From Felis catus (lineage: Eukaryota), in assembly GCF_018350175.1 (NCBI RefSeq), contig NC_058368.1:35528001-35592000 (forward strand): a stretch of 64,000 nucleotides of DNA, in the 5' to 3' direction. Position 1 is the first letter of the stretch; the number at the start of each line of letters is the position of its first letter. The notes beneath the pieces are model-generated. The model ran no database searches. It was not told the DNA's origin and worked only from the letters and a program-made list of their open reading frames with translations. Made by a program: the position numbers and the translations under genes. Positions 1 to 9,619 of the stretch are shown here, piece after piece.

Positions 1-1069
1 TAAACCATCGAGTCTGGCCTCCAGAACAATTCTGTGTATTCCTGCACCTTCTGCAAGCTGCTGATCCTTGGATGAGTATTACCACTACCGTTTTACATTT
101 TTCATCCTTCCGGAAAACAATAGCTAAACATCAGAGCATGAAATAATGTTTTGTTCAGGGGTCTGCCAAGCATGTCAGGTCAAATTCTCCTTTTTTTTGG
201 CCTTCAAATTGTTTTGTGAACTCCCATAATAGCATCGCATCACATTTGGTCTTCAGGAAAACAGACTTTGAAAACAAGAGTTGATGGACCCTGACAGCCA
301 GTTTCTTAGGTGTATCCTTCCAGCCACCCAAGCATGCCAGATAGTTACACTTTGACTTCAGGAGCCTTGACCCGCCTCCAAAGTCCTCCCATAGCACTAT
401 AAACTCAACAGCTTTCGGGAGTCCACTGTTCACTGGACGGACGTACCTTAAGTCTCAGTATTTGGGGAAGATGGCTAGCTCTCAGAAATCTTTACAATAC
501 TTTTCTTACTGTCCATTTCTTGTGGTGTGCATCTGGTGCACAAGGAAAAGCTCAGAGTGATAAAACTGAACACTAGAGCTACAGAATGAATAATGCTGAC
601 TCCAACCTCAGGTTGACAAGGTGGGAAAACCCCCACCCTAACCTGGCACCATTACTGATTGCAGCTGACAGCGAGAAGTCATTTGGAAAAAAGATGTTTC
701 TGTGATCAATAATCTTGGAATATCCTATTCAGAAATATCAGGCTTGGAACTCATCAAGAGAATCTTCGTGACAAAGCAAGGAGACTCCCCAATTGCTTCA
801 CAGATAGAGCTGTGTCATTCAACCCATCTGAAACTCTGGAGGAAAATCAGACAGTGCAGGTGGGAAGGACCAACTCACCCAGATTCTTTACCAGTCTTTG
901 TGTAAGGATCTGTGGTTGCTTTGGCCAAGTCATTGGATCTATTTCACATAGAAATGATATTAAATGCATACCCTGCCAGAATAGCTATTATCATTTCTAA
1001 TGCTGTATTCATTCTGCTAATATCCTTACAGGGTCTCCTCTTTCCTTTTGATGAGTTATCAGCCCTTCC

Positions 1070-1421
1070 ACCGATGTGTGCAAGGAAGCAAAGCAGACAG
1101 GTTTAAGGTGGAGGAAGAAGCTGAACAGGTATTGAATTGCTAAAGAGGCAGAACCTACAGGGAGCTCTGAGCTGGCATGACCCTTCAGAGTTTTCCCATA
1201 TTAAGGCAGGGAGGCAAAGCTTTAGACTGAAATTGACATGCTATTGGGTGATGGCTGCTCCAGGAAAGGGTCATGACCTTAGGGAATGCAGCTCCATAGG
1301 CAGAGGGCAATCCCTGGGAGGGCTCAACTGTAAGACCTCAGCAGTGACACCCCCAGAATCTGGGGAATGAGTGTCTTGGACTAGAAGGGGGGCATGGATG
1401 GTGCCACACAGATTTACCATA
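1070..1421 (-). mobile_element. ERVL LTR, LTR16A-like
   Basis: GGGAGCTCTGAGCTGGCATGACCCTTCAGAGTT...AGAGGGCAATCCCTGGGAG...TGGGGAATGAGTGTCTT resembles the reverse complement of the recalled LTR16A consensus. Confidence 0.7.
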
Positions 1422-2142
1422 CCCTCTCCAAAAATGTGAGGAGCAGCCCTTCCTAAATTCTGGTGGTGCGTTAGGGGACTGTTCCAACAGACTCCTGTTT
1501 CCACGCCTCCAAAAGTGTCTAAGGCAGGTCTTAGGCCAAGGGTCTTGTGATGTTCAGTTTGCAAAACTTAACGCAGTGCTTTGATAGGTTTAACTAGATT
1601 ATGTGGGTTTCTTTTTAAAGAAAGGGAATTTCTAATACTAGCCTCTAATTTTTCTTGCTAGCTTTTAATTGCAAATGCACAGTATTTCAGCTACATTTGG
1701 TTCCGATCGATTTTTGTCCACCATCCAAGAAGCCTTACAGCCATTGTTTCTAAGAGAAAATGTATATTGAGTTCCAAAAGCTCAAAAGAAGTCTTGGAAC
1801 AGTGCCCAGGTGGGGCCGGCCACACAGGTAATGGCTGCAATGAGCATGTTACAATTGTCAAACCCTTCAAACACACATAGGGAGAGCATTACAACATTAA
1901 AAGCAGAAGTTGCCTTTTAACTGTGCCTAGTGCAAACTGACGCTGGAGGGCAAAATACTGTTCTCATCAATTTGTCTCCAACAAATAAATCCAGTATCAC
2001 ACACTCCAAAACAAGGTAGGCTGTTTCCACAGATCACACATTTTAATGGAATCACACTTCATTTCTGGAACAAGCACATCTTGTCCAGGCAGCTCAGCTG
2101 TCATTACAAGCAGGATCTGGTCACCGCTCCTTCTATCCCTAG

Positions 2143-2262
2143 CATTATCCCTGTTTTACTGGGGAGGAAACTGGCAAGAGGCTTGGAAGTGACTTAGCCC
2201 CAAACGAGAGGTCAAGTCTGCAGCAGGCAGCTCATGAATTCAAGGCCTTCCCGAGCCTCCAG
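2143..2262 (-). mobile_element. MIR SINE fragment
   Basis: ATTATCCCTGTTTTACTGGGGAGGAAACTGG...GAAGTGACTTAGCCC is a reversed MIR core. Confidence 0.6.
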
Positions 2263-2399
2263 GCGGGTTTGGCTTCCTACCTCCGCCTGGACTCTCTCCC
2301 AGCTGAGGGGCCTGAAATGTCCCTATAACTCTCCTTGGCTCTTTTACCTGTGAAACAGGCTGGAAACAGCCATTCCCAGGAAGATTCAGTGTTCATTCA

Positions 2400-3000
2400 C
2401 TAATCAAAGAAGAAAAACCCGTTCTCAAGGGGGACACAGAATTGAGCACCGTTTCTGAGGAGTGTCTTATTTTCCTCCTGGGGGGGGGGGGTCAGAATTC
2501 TGAGGTTTGAGACCCTTTGGTTCCTCTGACAGCAATGTTAATAATCACGCCAGTTTTCCCCTGGCATGGTGGCACCACCGAGTAAAGCCCAGTGTAGGAG
2601 ATGTGCCCAGTGCAATAACGCCAGTTAAATAAGTACCGTTCATTGCTTCCCAACAGTCAAGGAGCTTAAAATCCTGTCAATTCATCCCACGTGAGGGAGA
2701 TTATGTGATTTACATGTTAAAGTGCCCCTGTGGTTTGATTTGCATAGCAAAGACTTTGGGGGCACGGAAACAAAGGATCAGTGTGCATGACAAGAGTGCT
2801 ATTAGCATAGAGCATTCCGATTTTCAGACAGCCCAGCCTGGCAAACAATCCGGCACCTTCACCACACCCCTTGAGTTTATAGGATTTGACAATTTCTCAA
2901 CGACAATAAGGAAAGGGGTTAGGGAGTTGGGGTGTGGAAAGAGGTTTACTAGAAAGGCTGTCTTCCTAAGCACAATAATTAGTCTTTCCCTAAAGGACTC
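2400..3000 (+). mobile_element. Fossil Penelope-like retroelement fragment (RT-EN linker, Cys motif, degenerate GIY-YIG endonuclease)
   Basis: Collinear peptides across frameshifts: LIKEEKPVLKGDTELSTVSEECLIF...*DPLV (from 2400), APPSKAQCRRCAQCNN (2572-2619), YVIYMLKCPCGLICIAKTLGARKQRISVH..KSAI...LEFIGFD...RKAVFLSTI (2702-2976), PKGL (2989-3000). These match the typical vertebrate PLE C-terminus as recalled. Confidence 0.8.
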
Positions 3001-3152
3001 CCCTTCTCCCATCACCTTCCCACCCGCCCCCCTCTGATATTCATTCCAAGGAAGAAATATGATGCCTAATAATAGTGGCAGAGATCAGCCACAACCATTT
3101 TGAACGCTGGATAACACAGCCAGTAGCTCTACCTTCATCAGCACAAAAGCGT

Positions 3153-3153
<1 letters not shown>

Positions 3154-3186
<33 letters not shown>
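3154..3186. repeat. (CA)n microsatellite
   Basis: Uninterrupted CA run. Confidence 0.95.
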
Positions 3187-3189
<3 letters not shown>

Positions 3190-3244
3190 GAAATGTATTT
3201 ATTTGTATCTTTGTTTCTTCATTTATTTCTGTACTATTGACCGA

Positions 3245-3415
3245 GCAGTACCTAACGTAAAGAACACTGGTTAGGAAGTTCAGGGCTTGGCTTTAAGTCC
3301 TGACTTTACCACATTCGTTATCTGGGCAAGTCACCTAATTCCTTCCTCTACAACTCAATTTTCTCCTAAAATGGAAGATGGACCAGAAAAGCTCTAAGAT
3401 CCCTTCCAGCACTAG
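3245..3415 (+). mobile_element. MIR3/MIRc-type SINE
   Basis: CTGGGCAAGTCACCTAA core and CTCTAAGATCCCTTCCAGC tail. Confidence 0.65.
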
Positions 3416-3729
3416 CATAAGAGAGGCAATCCAGTGCACAGTTTCGTTAGCCAAACTGAACCACAGGAACTGGGGGCCAAAGCCAAAATGAGTGCCCCAG
3501 AAATCCCACCTTAAAGTTGTCAACTGTCACTTCAAGAGTTTGTCACTTACCTGCCCCCAGCAAGTCTCTCAGTCTGAAAAGAAGATCAACAAATGTGTCT
3601 TGAGCTGTTGGGAGACTGAATATACTGCTCTAAGTGAAAAGCATTTTGCAAATTATATATGCAATACACTGTTACTATGTGTTAACTCCAATGAGACTGA
3701 AAACCCAAATATACTAATGGTAGGGAAAA

Positions 3730-4000
3730 ATCTTATAAGATGGCTGACAGGACTGATAGGGAATTTCCAGTCCCCGACTAAAAACTCCCCTTCCGGGTTC
3801 TTGTTCCTACCCCGCTTGCCAAGCCCGCCAAATTACTACTAATGCAGAATGCGGAAGTAACAGACTATAAAGTGTTGCCTCTGCTTGCGCCCGCCCGGGA
3901 CTCAGATCTCTGGAGAGTGATCTCTGATCCCTCCCTCCTGCCTTCCAATCCCAGGTGCCGCTTGGCTCTTCCGCTGGGTGATCCAGGCCAGGTTCCGTAA
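3730..4000. promoter_or_regulatory. Candidate promoter (locally CpG-retaining, motif-dense)
   Basis: AAGATGGC (YY1-like, 3737), GGGAATTTCC (NF-kB, 3759-3768), CTTCCGG and GCGGAAGT (ETS, 3790 and 3851), CCCGCCAAA (E2F, 3824-3832), TATAAA (3866-3871), GCCCGCCC (3889-3896). Confidence 0.45.
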
Positions 4001-4039
4001 CACTAACATCAGGATGTTGTGAAATAGTCGTTTAAACCT

Positions 4040-4250
4040 ATTGGTTTTCGGGTGGAGGATCGAGGGGTGGGGCAGGGAGTGATTCTGCACCCCCTAAGAT
4101 ATTTGGCAATGTCTGGAGAAATTTTTGATAGCTACAACTGGGAGCAGCGGCGGAGAAATGCTGCTGGTATCTACAGGAGAGTGGTCAGGGGTGCTGCTAA
4201 ATGTCCTGGAAGGCAGGACAAGTCTTAGGCAAAAAACAATTATCCTGCTA
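4040..4250 (+). mobile_element. MER20 (hAT-Charlie MITE), interrupted by a CAN-SINE
   Basis: ATTTGGCAATGTCTGGAGAAATTTTTG...ACAACTGGG...GGTGCTGCTAAATGTCCT...AATTATCC matches MER20. Confidence 0.8.
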
Positions 4251-4471
4251 GGGGCGCCTGGGCAGCTCAGTCAGTTAAGTGGCCGACCTCGGTGCAGGTC
4301 ATGACCTCATGATCTGTGAGTTCAAGCCCCGCCTGCGCTCTGTGCTGACAGCTCAGAGCCTGGAGCATGCTTTGGATTCTGTGTCTCTCCCCCGCTCCCC
4401 GCCCCTCCCCAACTCCTGCTCTGACTCTCAAAAATAAATAAATGTTAAGAAAAATTAAAAAAAAAAAAAAA
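4251..4471 (+). mobile_element. CAN-SINE (feline SINEC)
   Basis: GGGGCGCCTGGGCAGCTCAGTCAGTTAAG tRNA-like head, CT-rich linker, AATAAA and A tail; degenerate TSD AA(C/G)AATTATC(C/T)TGCT. Confidence 0.95.
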
Positions 4472-5046
4472 GAATTATCTTGCTCAATTGTAAGCCTAGT
4501 ACTCAAATATCCCCCTAAACAATAGCTGTCTGTTTTCCCAGGGAAGAAAACAGGTCTAGTCGGTATGAACAAATGATATTTAGATACCATGAATACCTAG
4601 ACTATGGCCCTGTGACAAAGCCCCAGACAAAAACAGGTTCCCTCTGAGATTTCATTATCAAGCTCTTGGCCACAGGGACTTGGATGGAGGCTGTCCTCTA
4701 ACCCAAAAGCCCCATAAATAGAAGTGCAGAAAGATTATAAGCACGCTAATAACTCTACAAAATGTGTGCTCTCTTTTTTATTTGGGGTGGAGGGAAGAAA
4801 ATCAAATCTCCAAAACACAGTTATTGTGTATAATTAAGTAATGGGAGTCGGGGAAAGAATGTATGAAGAATATATGATGCATCATTTATACTGAGGGCTG
4901 AACTCTGATTCTGCGTGTGTTTCATTTCCATGCAGTTAAGTACACAGTTCATTCTCTCTAGAAATCTACTGATCTAAAGATCTGCTCCGAACATACGATG
5001 TAAAGGAATAAAATATCTGCTATAATTGACATTCTTTTTAGTTACA

Positions 5047-5224
5047 CTTTTTAAAAAAATGTTTATTTTTGAAAGAGGGGCAGAAAGAGAGGGGGACAGA
5101 GGATCTGAAGTGAGCTCCTTACTGATAGCAGAGAGCCCGAGGTGGGGATCAAATGCACAGAGCCACGAGATCATGACCTGAGCCCAAGTTGGACACTCAA
5201 CCCACTACGCCACCCAGGCTCCCC
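5047..5224 (-). mobile_element. CAN-SINE (older, diverged)
   Basis: Reverse head ...GCCACCCAGGCTCCCC, GAGATCATGACCTGAGC and T-rich tail. Confidence 0.9.
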
Positions 5225-7128
5225 TCTTGTTAGTTTTTGTTTTTGTTTTTGTTTTTTTTTTTTTAGGCATTTAATCACTAGCTAGGTGTTACAGAGTTTG
5301 AAGCATGAACAGTTCTACTGGGTATCTGTTGAGCATTCTGGAATGCTTCTTCTTACTGCCCAGGCTGAACAGAGAACGTGATTCTGTAAGATCTTCAATG
5401 GGTTCATACTTTCATTCTCCAACATCTCCAACCTTAGATGGAGAAAAATAAATTATGAAACGCGAAACTCTTATTTCACATTTAAATGCCAACGTTTTGG
5501 TTTCAAAACAAAAAATAACTGTAAATGCATTTCTGTTATTTCTCATCATGTACCCATAAAGAGGGTGTTACAATAAATGGGGAAACAAAATTGTAAGGAA
5601 TAAGAAAGCTTTGAGGGTAGGATTAGAACTCAAAATCTTTAAGTTTTTTAAACTCATGCCAACAATTCTGTAAATGCAAGTTACCTTCTCTATACTTTGT
5701 CCTTCAACTCGACAGCCTCCTGTTCCATGTTATGCCAATGTGTTCCCTAAACGGCTTTTTGAATAACAGTGACTTGGGAAGCAAAAGTATTGCTACACTG
5801 GACCATTTCGTCTTGACTTGTCTTGTTCAAACCAGATTTCAGGCCTTGAGCCTGGTGTTAAGGTCTCTGAATCCTGACACCTCTGACCTGAGCTGACAGT
5901 TCTTTCCTTTACCCTCCTGAAATGTTAGTGGGGCACTGGCACTGACTCTCTCCACTGAGATAAGAGCCTGGCAGTGAAATAGCATAGTAGAGGTGAGACC
6001 CTTGTAAAACACAGAGCAAAGGCATAATAGTTTTAAGGTGAACCAAGGTCACTGCTCCTGAGAGCTCAGTGAAAAGGCATTGACAACACCTTCGGAAACC
6101 CTGGTTTTGTAGTGCATTGGTAATTGTAGTGTCTTTGAGAAGAAGTAACTGTTTAAAGTATATGCAGATAACATTCCAGATTTTTCCTGTGCCTGAGTAT
6201 AAACTTGGCACTTTTAAAAATGGCGTAAGATCTGTCAAGTCACCCGGGTGCCATTTTTGAAATTACTATTACAATGAACTAAGTGGTGCCTCTCAGGATT
6301 TACCCCATGTTCAAAAACTGTTCATATAATTAAAGGATAAAGCCATTTGATAAAACCCTAAGAATAATTTAGGTCCTAGAAGAATCCATCTATTTTGGGC
6401 CCGCTTTTGTCCATGTACTTCCCCTAGGACCTAAGTGAACTCTGAAATTTTCTAATTAACAGTTTATTGTACGGAATTCTTACAAGGTATTATTCTCTTT
6501 CCATCCCTGAACATGCACACACACACATACGCATTTCCTTTGTAGAGTTCACTTTTGAGGTTTCTGATGAAGGACAATCCCAGTTTCAGAAGGGGCTTTC
6601 TGGTCTGAGGCAGAGAGAGAGGAATGCAAAGGTGAACAGATCAGGAGGTGCTGTCTCAGAACCTATGGATTATTTTCATTTAGGATAGGTAGAGACAGAA
6701 ATAACTAAAGGCAGAAGGAAGGAGGGTTTATTTTCTACAGACTTGTATACGTTTAAACTTGAGGAGAAATTCTCAGCAGTGCCTGGATTGGTTGATCTTA
6801 AAGAAGTGGCCAAGGAACTTTCCCTGAGAAAACAGTAGTTATCCCGGCTAGGATTACCTAAAGTGGGTGGCATTGTTTGCATTCTGGGAAGGAAGAGCCT
6901 CAAAGCCAAGCTCCTGGGATATCCATCTCCTAGAATGACAAAGAGCCAAAGGGGAAAACGTCATCAGAGAAAAAAACAGTGCTTATTCAAAAATATTTCC
7001 AGAGGCCATGCATGCTCCAAGGAGTATAGACTAAACATTTTTTTCTTTCACATAAAGAGGAAATTGAGCCAGTCACACTGTTGGAAGAGCTGTGTGACAA
7101 AGGAAACTCACTAGGATGTGAGCAAGTA

Positions 7129-7560
7129 CAGCAGTCACCCTCATCAGAGGTTTCAGTTCCCCGCGAGGACCTTGACCCAGAAGCAGATGATCCTCCCTTT
7201 ACATAGCGTCAGAAGGTCAATAGTAGTGTAATGCTATGTCGGTCACAGTGCCTATGTCATTCCCCTCGTTTCATCTCATCACGTAGGCATTTTATCATTT
7301 CACATCATCACAAGAAGGGTGAGTACAGTACAGTAAGATATTTTGATCGAGAGGCCATATTCACATGGCTTTTATTACAGTAATTTTTATGATTGTTCTG
7401 TTTTCTTATTAGTTATTGTTAATCTCTTACGTGCCTAATTTGTAAATTAAACATTATAAGAGGTATGTATAGGAAAAAACATAGTACATATAGGATTGAG
7501 TACTATCGGCGGTTTCAGGCTGGAGGTCTTCGAACGTATCCCCCACGGATAAGGAGGGAA
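7129..7560 (+). mobile_element. Tigger2a-like TcMar-Tigger MITE
   Basis: Begins TA|CAG; internal CATCTCATCACGTAGGCATTTTATCAT...ACAAGAAGGGTGAGTACAGTAC; ends GAACGTATCCCCCACGGATAAGG. Confidence 0.85.
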
Positions 7561-9619
7561 AGCAGGACTTACAATATCCTCTGGCATAGTTTGTGATCTC
7601 TGTCAGAAAGTGAGGAGTTTGGGGAAAAGTGATGCAGCAAACATTCCGATGGTGTTTATCTCAGGACAGAAGAAAACGATGTGTCTGAGACCAGAGCGTC
7701 CGGGAATACACTGCCTCACCCTTACTTGGGTTTTACGTTGAAAATGATAAGCAATATGCCACTGGACACAAAAGCACTTGAAAATAGAATTAAGCAAACT
7801 TAATAAACATAAAAAGGTAAGATGGTATATCATTATTTCAGTTCCCTTTGCTAATAACTTATCCAATATGCTTCTCTTTGTTCCTCAAACCTATGACTTC
7901 CCCATGGATCAAAACAAAGTCTTCTTAAAAAAAAAAGAGAAAAAAACCCTAAAAAATTTGTTTAAACATAAAAATTCTGATATATGCTTGTTTAGTTGAC
8001 TCAGTCCCCATCCTGATATTAAGACTATGTTACACTTATGTTACACTTACACTCCCCTAGTGAAATGTTTAAGATAAACAATGGTTAATAAATTTTTCAG
8101 GCTTATCTGAGAATAGTCACCCTTTTCCCTCTGTCATTTCACTTACTGCATTTTTCCACGTAAGGAACACCATATCTGAACAATCCATTCTAAAAATAAA
8201 CAAAGCTCTGTGGGTGGCTGATCTGAGATTGTGCCTGAGATTTATCTTCCTATCAGCCCTAATCTGTGTTGCCTTCCAGTAGCATTTCTTCCCCAGCCTC
8301 GAATGGAAGGCACTCACCTAGGAAACGACAATCTATCTTTCAATTTTCCCAGAAGGCTCTTTCTCAACATGAATGTTTCCATGAGTTGTTTGTATCCCGT
8401 TGACCATAACCCTATTACCTCGACTGGGAACAGATGTTGGTATGTTGTGAGAAACTAATATTCATCTCAAAAATTTCATTTAGATCATTGTACATGAACA
8501 CCTAGAGATAAATGCAGGGCTAAGGTAATAGAATACAAGAACATGAAAAAAAATTCAGAAGTAGCTTATTCTTGCTATGCATTTTATCTTCTGAAAGTAG
8601 AAGCAACACACTTTGCCAAAAATTGATTGGGAATTAATTAGAAAATTCTCTGACCTAAATCAAATGATAAATTATGTGAAAATAGAATTTTTTCTACACT
8701 GCAAAATTGTACTTTCCTGGTGATATCTGTTTTATTATGTAGTGTTATATACATTTTTAATGATATTCTATACTAATCAACAGCATTTATTTTATATACA
8801 TGTTTAGTTCAATTTTACTTATAAGGACACTTAGGATTCCAAACATTCAGTTCTATGTAAAATTCTCATCTTCATGTGCTGCCCAGTAGTGACTGACAAT
8901 GTTAAATCTTTTCAGAAGTTAAACAAATAATGGTGAATTTTTTAGTTATGATTAAAGTGAATGGGAGTACCTAATACATATTGACCAACACAGGGAAATT
9001 TTTGGAAGGTTCAGTAACAAGTGCTGTGCTACCAGACTGTGGTCTTAGACATCTACCAAAGGACATTCATTATTCAAAGCCAGGAAAGATTAATAAGGCC
9101 ACAAAAGGAACAGCGTGTGACCATTACTCAAAAAGGATATTTGAATTTAAGTACCAAAAACTTGAATAGGACATCTGACAAGGGAAATTTTAAAGCAAGC
9201 TTTAGGATGAGAAAAATCCTAAGGAGAGGCCAAAGATTAATACTGGCCATCCTGGGTGGGAGTCATTTTTTCTAGCTCAGAGATTCATATTTCAAACTCA
9301 TCATTGGTAAGACTCCAGTTCATTTACCCCATCACTGTCCTGACTTTTGAGCTATTAAAAAGAGATTTTGAAACTTGGAATAAGTGAAAAAGCATCAAAG
9401 AAAAGCTCACAATCTCTTAGTAGGATTGTTTCAATTTAGCCATGCTGTTATCAGTATGGGGTAGTGATAACTCAAATAAAGACTGAAGGTGTTTTTCCTC
9501 ACCTGCACTTTATAGGGGCCTAGCTGGTAAAAATACTCATGAAGAACATAAGCATCAGAGTCATACTTAGGTGGCAGAGAATTATGTCATAGAAATTAAT
9601 TTTTTAGAATTATATCATA

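Follow-up and report, generated by a model that had tools for sequence, protein, structure and literature searches.

Introduction

For Penelope-like elements (PLEs), Craig et al. (2021; PMC8557442) describe a CxxCxxC linker as a mark of Neptune and Nematis that is absent in Penelope/Poseidon, and an insertion bias toward microsatellites. Traces of these elements have also been reported from mammalian genomes. In Kojima (2018; PMC5753468), Penelope is counted among the clades that left traces in human, and the Repbase entry UCON13 is filed under Penelope. Frith (2022; PMC9004415) reports a total of 56 human Penelope protein fossils, i.e., two of pre-tetrapod and 54 of pre-amniote age, with 53 of the 54 pre-amniote fossils absent from RepeatMasker. 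The same study places the human fossils often in gene deserts or large introns and reads their conservation as exaptation.

Here, we describe a sequence in a stretch of 64,000 nucleotides of Felis catus DNA (the window in the following), which is an instance of this already published kind, the fossil PLEs of mammals. The segment at 2391-3045 on the plus strand very probably represents the 3′ part of one ancient, Neptune-like PLE insertion that is dead and was inherited. Penelope1_Vert is the name of a RepeatMasker family; this name is found in no paper of the literature searched.

Location and Layout of the Relic

The features discussed below are given with their window coordinates, their strand and the evidence by which they were placed.

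2391-3045, plus strand: PLE C-terminal relic (PLE profile, linker sub-profile, PKGL spacing)
2391-2522, plus strand: block 1, perhaps what is left of the PLE segment that precedes the linker (collinear, weak)
2572-2616, plus strand: block 2, linker with a CxxCxxC zinc-finger-like motif (frame +1, peptide APPS to CAQCN)
2593-2595, 2602-2604 and 2611-2613, plus strand: codons of the linker cysteines (frame +1)
2651-2935, plus strand: remnant of the GIY-YIG endonuclease domain (within the stop-free frame 2633-3034)
2708-2764, plus strand: slow-evolving core, residues 26-44 of the open reading frame (translated fragments)
2951-3000, plus strand: end of the nuclease domain, with R-K-A-V-F at 2951-2965, a frame slip of 1 nt and PKGL at 2989-3000
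3154-3185, no strand assigned: (CA)16 microsatellite (sequence reading)

An earlier note on this DNA had proposed four peptide blocks on the plus strand, and direct reading of the sequence located all of them where they had been placed. Block 1 lies in frame +2, which is open at 2316-2507 and is followed by a TGA at 2508-2510 and by DPLV at 2511-2522. A run of twelve G residues (G12) at 2480-2491 lies inside this block and is a likely site of indels blurring it. Block 3, next to the linker of block 2, is a stop-free frame of 134 codons at 2633-3034 on the plus strand with a GTG at 2705, and block 4 is the PKGL at 2989-3000 on the same strand, in a frame shifted relative to block 3. The genome from which the window derives comprises 2.43 Gb in 71 contigs and contains the relic stretch as a single copy; a search of this genome for a paralogue resulted in no similar sequence (best E 4.1).

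The window has the look of a gene desert or of a large intron. Within the 64 kb, none of the 400-bp segments has a GC content above 0.5 together with a CpG observed/expected ratio above 0.6, and none of 60 other long frames (at least 85 codons) contains a Pfam domain, both of which make the region look gene-poor. The idea that the relic acts as a cis-element for a promoter approximately 0.75 kb away is unsupported, as no segment resembling a CpG island is present.

Identity as a Penelope-Like Element

Evidence for the identity of the relic comes from a profile of PLE C-termini, which was built from 80 of the 88 relatives of the protein P0015 (fish and amphibian sequences) and was run on the 4455 six-frame pieces of the window. 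The frame 2633-3034 ranked first among the 4455 pieces with an E-value of 2.2e-11 (41.6 bits), profile positions 92-185 being aligned to residues 7-101 of the open reading frame. The second-best piece with the same profile was the linker piece at 2545-2625 (E 0.23), and with the linker sub-profile alone the piece of block 2 ranked first of 4455 (E 0.047).

P0015 itself, a protein of 427 amino acids, was the sole match in a search of longer proteins (database-wide E 0.24). It contains the YIDD box of a reverse transcriptase, a CxxCxxC linker and a GIY-YIG domain (22.5 bits with Pfam GIY-YIG). It is identical to the window in 21 of 31 residues at 2705-2797 and, by tblastn, in 8 of 15 residues at the linker (2572-2616). 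In a tblastn search of P0015 against the whole window these two segments were returned in the correct order with a summed E-value of 1e-8, compared to E 1.7 for the next-best place. Of 166 candidates, 88 qualified as its relatives (E up to 1e-5), and some of these are named proteins from fish and amphibians that carry RVT_1 and GIY-YIG domains. When phmmer was run exhaustively against 1.84 billion representative sequences (E up to 0.001), it returned 14 matches, i.e., 11 short open reading frame fragments that are 49-95% identical, two long repetitive proteins and P0014. The latter is a GIY-YIG piece of 57 residues, which matches the window frame with a database-wide E of 5.6e-4 and reaches 18.7 bits with Pfam GIY-YIG. 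On this database-wide scale, the direct matches to P0014 and P0015 are thus of modest strength. The two long repetitive proteins, P0012 and P0013, match in 5-7 short stretches and were discarded as unrelated.

Direct searches of Pfam and of PDB sequences were negative. Five frames of 2316-3069 were compared with Pfam, and no match with an E-value of 10 or below was obtained; the gathering cut-off of Pfam GIY-YIG (PF01541; 22.6 bits) is not reached by the window frame, nor by the intact relative P0015, which falls just below it. Likewise, no solved structure was matched in a PDB sequence search with the relic frame. These two negative results would fit with a chance resemblance to GIY-YIG motifs, but such a chance resemblance is refuted by the profile E-value of 2.2e-11 and by three blocks that are collinear and correctly ordered and spaced, so that we consider it virtually out of the question. 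The relic is thus read as the end of a fossil PLE with a GIY-YIG domain, as had been claimed before, and this claim is borne out by the PLE profile and by the collinear tblastn match to P0015.

Metagenome contigs were also scanned. The 10 loci obtained are PLE copies that belong to a different organism, and none of them is an orthologue of the relic. One of them (L006) carries at 1101-3548 an open PLE frame of 816 codons with reverse transcriptase, CxxCxxC linker and GIY-YIG domain, which runs off the end of the contig. It has nine sister loci in the same assembly; the contig belongs to a eukaryote, sampled within a metagenome, whose young PLE copies are numerous.

The four blocks differ in how far they exceed chance. 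Blocks 2 and 3 do so by rank, and block 4 does so by position, since it obtained no HMMER score of its own. The tetrapeptide PKGL occurs three times in the 127,996 six-frame positions of the window, and one of these occurrences is at 2989. In the profile, the proline of PKGL follows the arginine of R-E-A-F by 13 codons, which predicts a position of 2990 from the RKAVF at 2951, compared to the observed 2989. In the fragment P0010, K-G-L is in frame with RKAVF, which points to a slip of one base in the window at this site. For block 1 the claim of a match beyond chance did not stand: HMMER placed it at the collinear profile positions 10-33 at -0.3 bits, its scores range from -0.3 to 1.8 bits, and with the N-terminal sub-profile it ranked 73rd of 4455. 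Reading through the stop codon with an X resulted in rank 191 of 7169 and in an alignment that stops short of the TGA. The proposal that the TGA at 2508 is a former arginine codon was not recovered by the profile alignment. Block 1 may well belong to the PLE.

Truncation and State of the Nuclease

When a profile of the entire PLE was used (23 sequences, 694 positions), the match to the relic was confined to profile positions 547-664, and a search with this profile for remains of the reverse transcriptase upstream of the relic resulted in nothing below E 2. The missing reverse transcriptase reads as a 5′ truncation or, alternatively, as decay of this domain beyond the reach of the profile. An Rfam search of 1-8000 (E up to 5) revealed neither a hammerhead ribozyme nor a pseudo-LTR; its nine matches are weak, and all of them are far below the gathering score.

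At 2593-2613, the linker presents the spacing C-x2-C-x2-C and is collinear with the GIY-YIG core. As this linker is the mark of Neptune and Nematis in Craig et al. (2021; PMC8557442), the label "Neptune-like" appears fair, by linker rather than by a tree.

The remnant of the nuclease domain retains the GIY motif as V-I-Y, the two core cysteines (KCPCG at 2720-2734) and the histidine in R-I-S-V-H. These PLE-type core cysteines, which are part of a CCHH motif, lie within the match with E 2.2e-11; the first histidine of the motif is kept and the second is lost. The catalytic set (tyrosine of YIG, arginine, histidine, glutamate and asparagine) is no longer intact: YIG reads C-I-A, which removes the tyrosine, the arginine is replaced by glycine and the glutamate of the RE motif by lysine. 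The profile alignment and the comparison of the fragments thereby confirm the losses at YIG and RE from which the nuclease had been called dead. With the frame slips and the stop added, this sequence encodes a dead nuclease and, as judged from its reading frames, makes no protein. The lost catalytic residues are expected of a fossil; they rule out activity and not descent.

Downstream of the relic, the (CA)16 microsatellite begins some 110 bp after the point where the PLE frame should end. T-H-T-H is read at this position in the fragments P0008 and P0010 as well, which marks the repeat as old. It may be the mark of an old insertion target or insertion site, as PLEs are reported to favor microsatellite targets (Craig et al., 2021; PMC8557442), or it may be part of the 3′ untranslated tail. 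The segment 3009-3281, past the PLE frame, still aligns with P0104, P0008 and P0010 in shifted frames, and it is either the 3′ tail of the element or ordinary orthologous flank.

Relatives in Other Assemblies and Decay of the Reading Frame

The 11 fragments derive from other assemblies and share the dead motif, the tyrosine of YIG being replaced by cysteine or serine in all eight lineages that cover this site. From this shared loss we infer that the fragments are probably orthologous and descend from a single copy that had died before, and the presence of the same dead copy in other assemblies indicates that the insertion is old and was inherited. The relic stretch was also found in 24 DNA runs from three organisms, one of these organisms at a word share of 0.25. 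A DNA pattern encoding the core peptide had no match in prokaryote genome contigs.

The frame slips differ in their place. P0005 and P0006 switch the frame midway, P0003 and P0010 diverge by indels and other fragments end early. Frames broken at different places argue against a coding constraint, i.e., against selection for a protein. This bears on the alternative of a domesticated host gene or exon with a GIY-YIG-derived peptide as its present product, in favor of which the open frame of 134 codons and the open reading frames called here by gene callers in several assemblies could be brought forward. Against it stand the loss of the catalytic residues, the slips or stops at differing places in the frames of P0003 to P0011, the lack of a GT donor after the conserved block (as judged by eye) and the lack of RNA runs among the 24 listed with the stretch, the search having been directed at DNA. 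Taken together, a domesticated gene is very improbable, and the dead, inherited insertion remains the preferred reading. As a control, a frame of 116 codons in the flank (3492-3839) was searched in a collection of 5.8 billion proteins and had no match, not even in its own species; all that follows is that no gene had ever been called on this frame, and it is uninformative as a control.

Legibility and Other Relics of the Genome

The legibility of the relic and its open frame had been taken as signs of slow evolution. A frame of this length can be expected by chance, the window containing seven six-frame pieces of at least 134 codons. Moreover, the genome was searched with one full-length PLE protein (P0025) and eight candidates were scored (E up to 0.01), which resulted in at least four other PLE relics, all of them from the C-terminal part. 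They reach 48, 40, 31 + 25 and 17 + 15 + 12 bits with the same profile, which is comparable to the relic described here with its 41.6 bits. The argument from legibility to exaptation is therefore unsound. That PLE relics are rare, as had also been stated, agrees with the count of at least four others in this genome.

The four other relics lie on other contigs (L016, 1429-1819; L017, 1471-1938; L018, 1444-1701; L019, 1414-1835), and each of them is a dead PLE C-terminal relic with stops or frame slips. At the YIG site L018 retains Y-L-G, and in L019 the part preceding the linker is preserved (30.6 bits).

A Slow Core and the Question of Exaptation

Within the relic, one short segment evolves at a different pace. 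Counted as minimum changes in the translated fragments, with frame-shifted parts masked by eye and with the adjoining part of the relic as the reference, the core at 2708-2764 (57 bp) accumulated 11 changes in 19 columns vs. 97 changes in the 63 columns that follow it (binomial P 4e-4), i.e., it changes approximately 2.7-fold slower than the next 63 codons. This P-value applies to a block that was chosen after looking, to lineages that share history and are not independent, and to amino acids as a proxy for DNA. In P0003 and P0004 together, 1 of 38 positions in the core differs from the window vs. 28 of 92 over the following 46 codons (Fisher P 3e-4), and the close relatives P0001 and P0104 follow the same trend with a slower core. 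Binned identities past 3000 were left out of the comparison as unreliable, since a single gapped frame-2 alignment had run through frame-shifted sequence there. The core furthermore contains ATTTGCATAGCAAAG at 2738-2752, which we take to resemble an octamer/POU site abutting a SOX/TCF half-site. This composite pattern, a motif picked post hoc, occurs once in the window vs. 0.01 expected, while the plain octamer is found four times vs. 5.3 expected.

These observations bear on whether the relic was exapted, entirely or at the least in its core (2705-2820), as a non-coding regulatory element, with selection acting on the DNA and not on a protein. The rate difference of the core in both comparisons, the concordant trend in P0001 and P0104 and the single ATTTGCATAGCAAAG would fit with such an exaptation, and the conservation of such fossils is taken as exaptation by Frith (2022; PMC9004415). 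On the other hand, block and motif were selected post hoc, the plain octamer does not exceed its chance frequency, a CpG island is absent from the entire window, the segment 3009-3281 beyond the reading frame aligns as well in P0104, P0008 and P0010, and the four other relics are equally legible. We therefore hold exaptation to be possible but somewhat doubtful, with the slow core of 57 bp as one real but modest hint from the compared fragments.

The other possibility is that the relic is purely neutral and that its uneven conservation reflects chance or a locally low mutation rate. This would agree with the free breakage of the frames, with an open frame within chance, with the equal legibility of the other relics and with the distribution of CpG sites, as there is none in the core block and two in the next block. 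What speaks against neutrality is the 2.7-fold rate gap with P of approximately 4e-4, which is hard to obtain from two CpG sites. The case for a purely neutral relic appears evenly balanced.

For the core alone, the chance that the slow rate at 2708-2764 reflects a non-coding constraint may be put just short of even. A more specific proposal is that the core is a selected regulatory element derived from GIY-YIG coding sequence and kept in several mammal lineages, in which the substitutions that destroyed YIG (the site now reading I-C-I-A-K) would have created ATTTGCATAGCAAAG; this proposal is unlikely.

Proposed History

The history of the locus can be outlined as follows. By an inferred mode of insertion, a PLE would have copied itself by target-primed reverse transcription, with its C-terminal GIY-YIG nuclease nicking the target and its reverse transcriptase copying the RNA from the 3′ end. 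As the RNA is copied from this end, PLE copies are often shortened at the 5′ side, and here the last approximately 200 codons alone would have arrived or survived. The dead copy would then have been inherited, with most of the relic drifting freely and the 57-bp core changing at a slower rate.

Discussion and Comparison With Known Systems

The rarity, the conservation and the likely exaptation of mammalian PLE fossils are already in print (Kojima, 2018; Frith, 2022; PMC5753468, PMC9004415), and the locus matters little as it stands. It provides a clean worked example of a fossil PLE that can be recognized by eye, and it teaches that constraint is poorly indicated by an open frame or by legibility. 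If the 57-bp core is a bound regulatory site, it would add one more case of a transposable-element coding sequence that turned regulatory.

The closest intact systems are the canonical endonuclease-bearing (EN+) PLEs with a CX2-5CxxC linker of the Neptune/Nematis type, which are represented here by the fish and amphibian proteins P0015-P0102 (e.g., P0025, i.e., LOC129438772 of Misgurnus anguillicaudatus). In the relic as in these proteins, the CxxCxxC linker is followed by a GIY core with two cysteines, by R-x-A-F and by PKGL at equal spacing, with 21 of 31 residues identical in the core. Unlike these elements, the relic comprises the last approximately 200 of approximately 700 codons, without reverse transcriptase and without hammerhead; it also differs from them in lacking the catalytic tyrosine, arginine and glutamate and in its broken frame.

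Among fossils, the relic resembles the human pre-amniote Penelope fossils of Frith (2022; PMC9004415) in being a short, single-copy fossil in gene-poor DNA of a mammal, which is present in several species and is in part slow-evolving. As the coordinates of those fossils are human, the relic is likened to them by kind and is not matched to them by locus. Similarly, it is comparable to UCON13 (Kojima, 2018; PMC5753468) and to Penelope1_Vert, both of which are low-copy traces of PLEs in mammalian repeat libraries.
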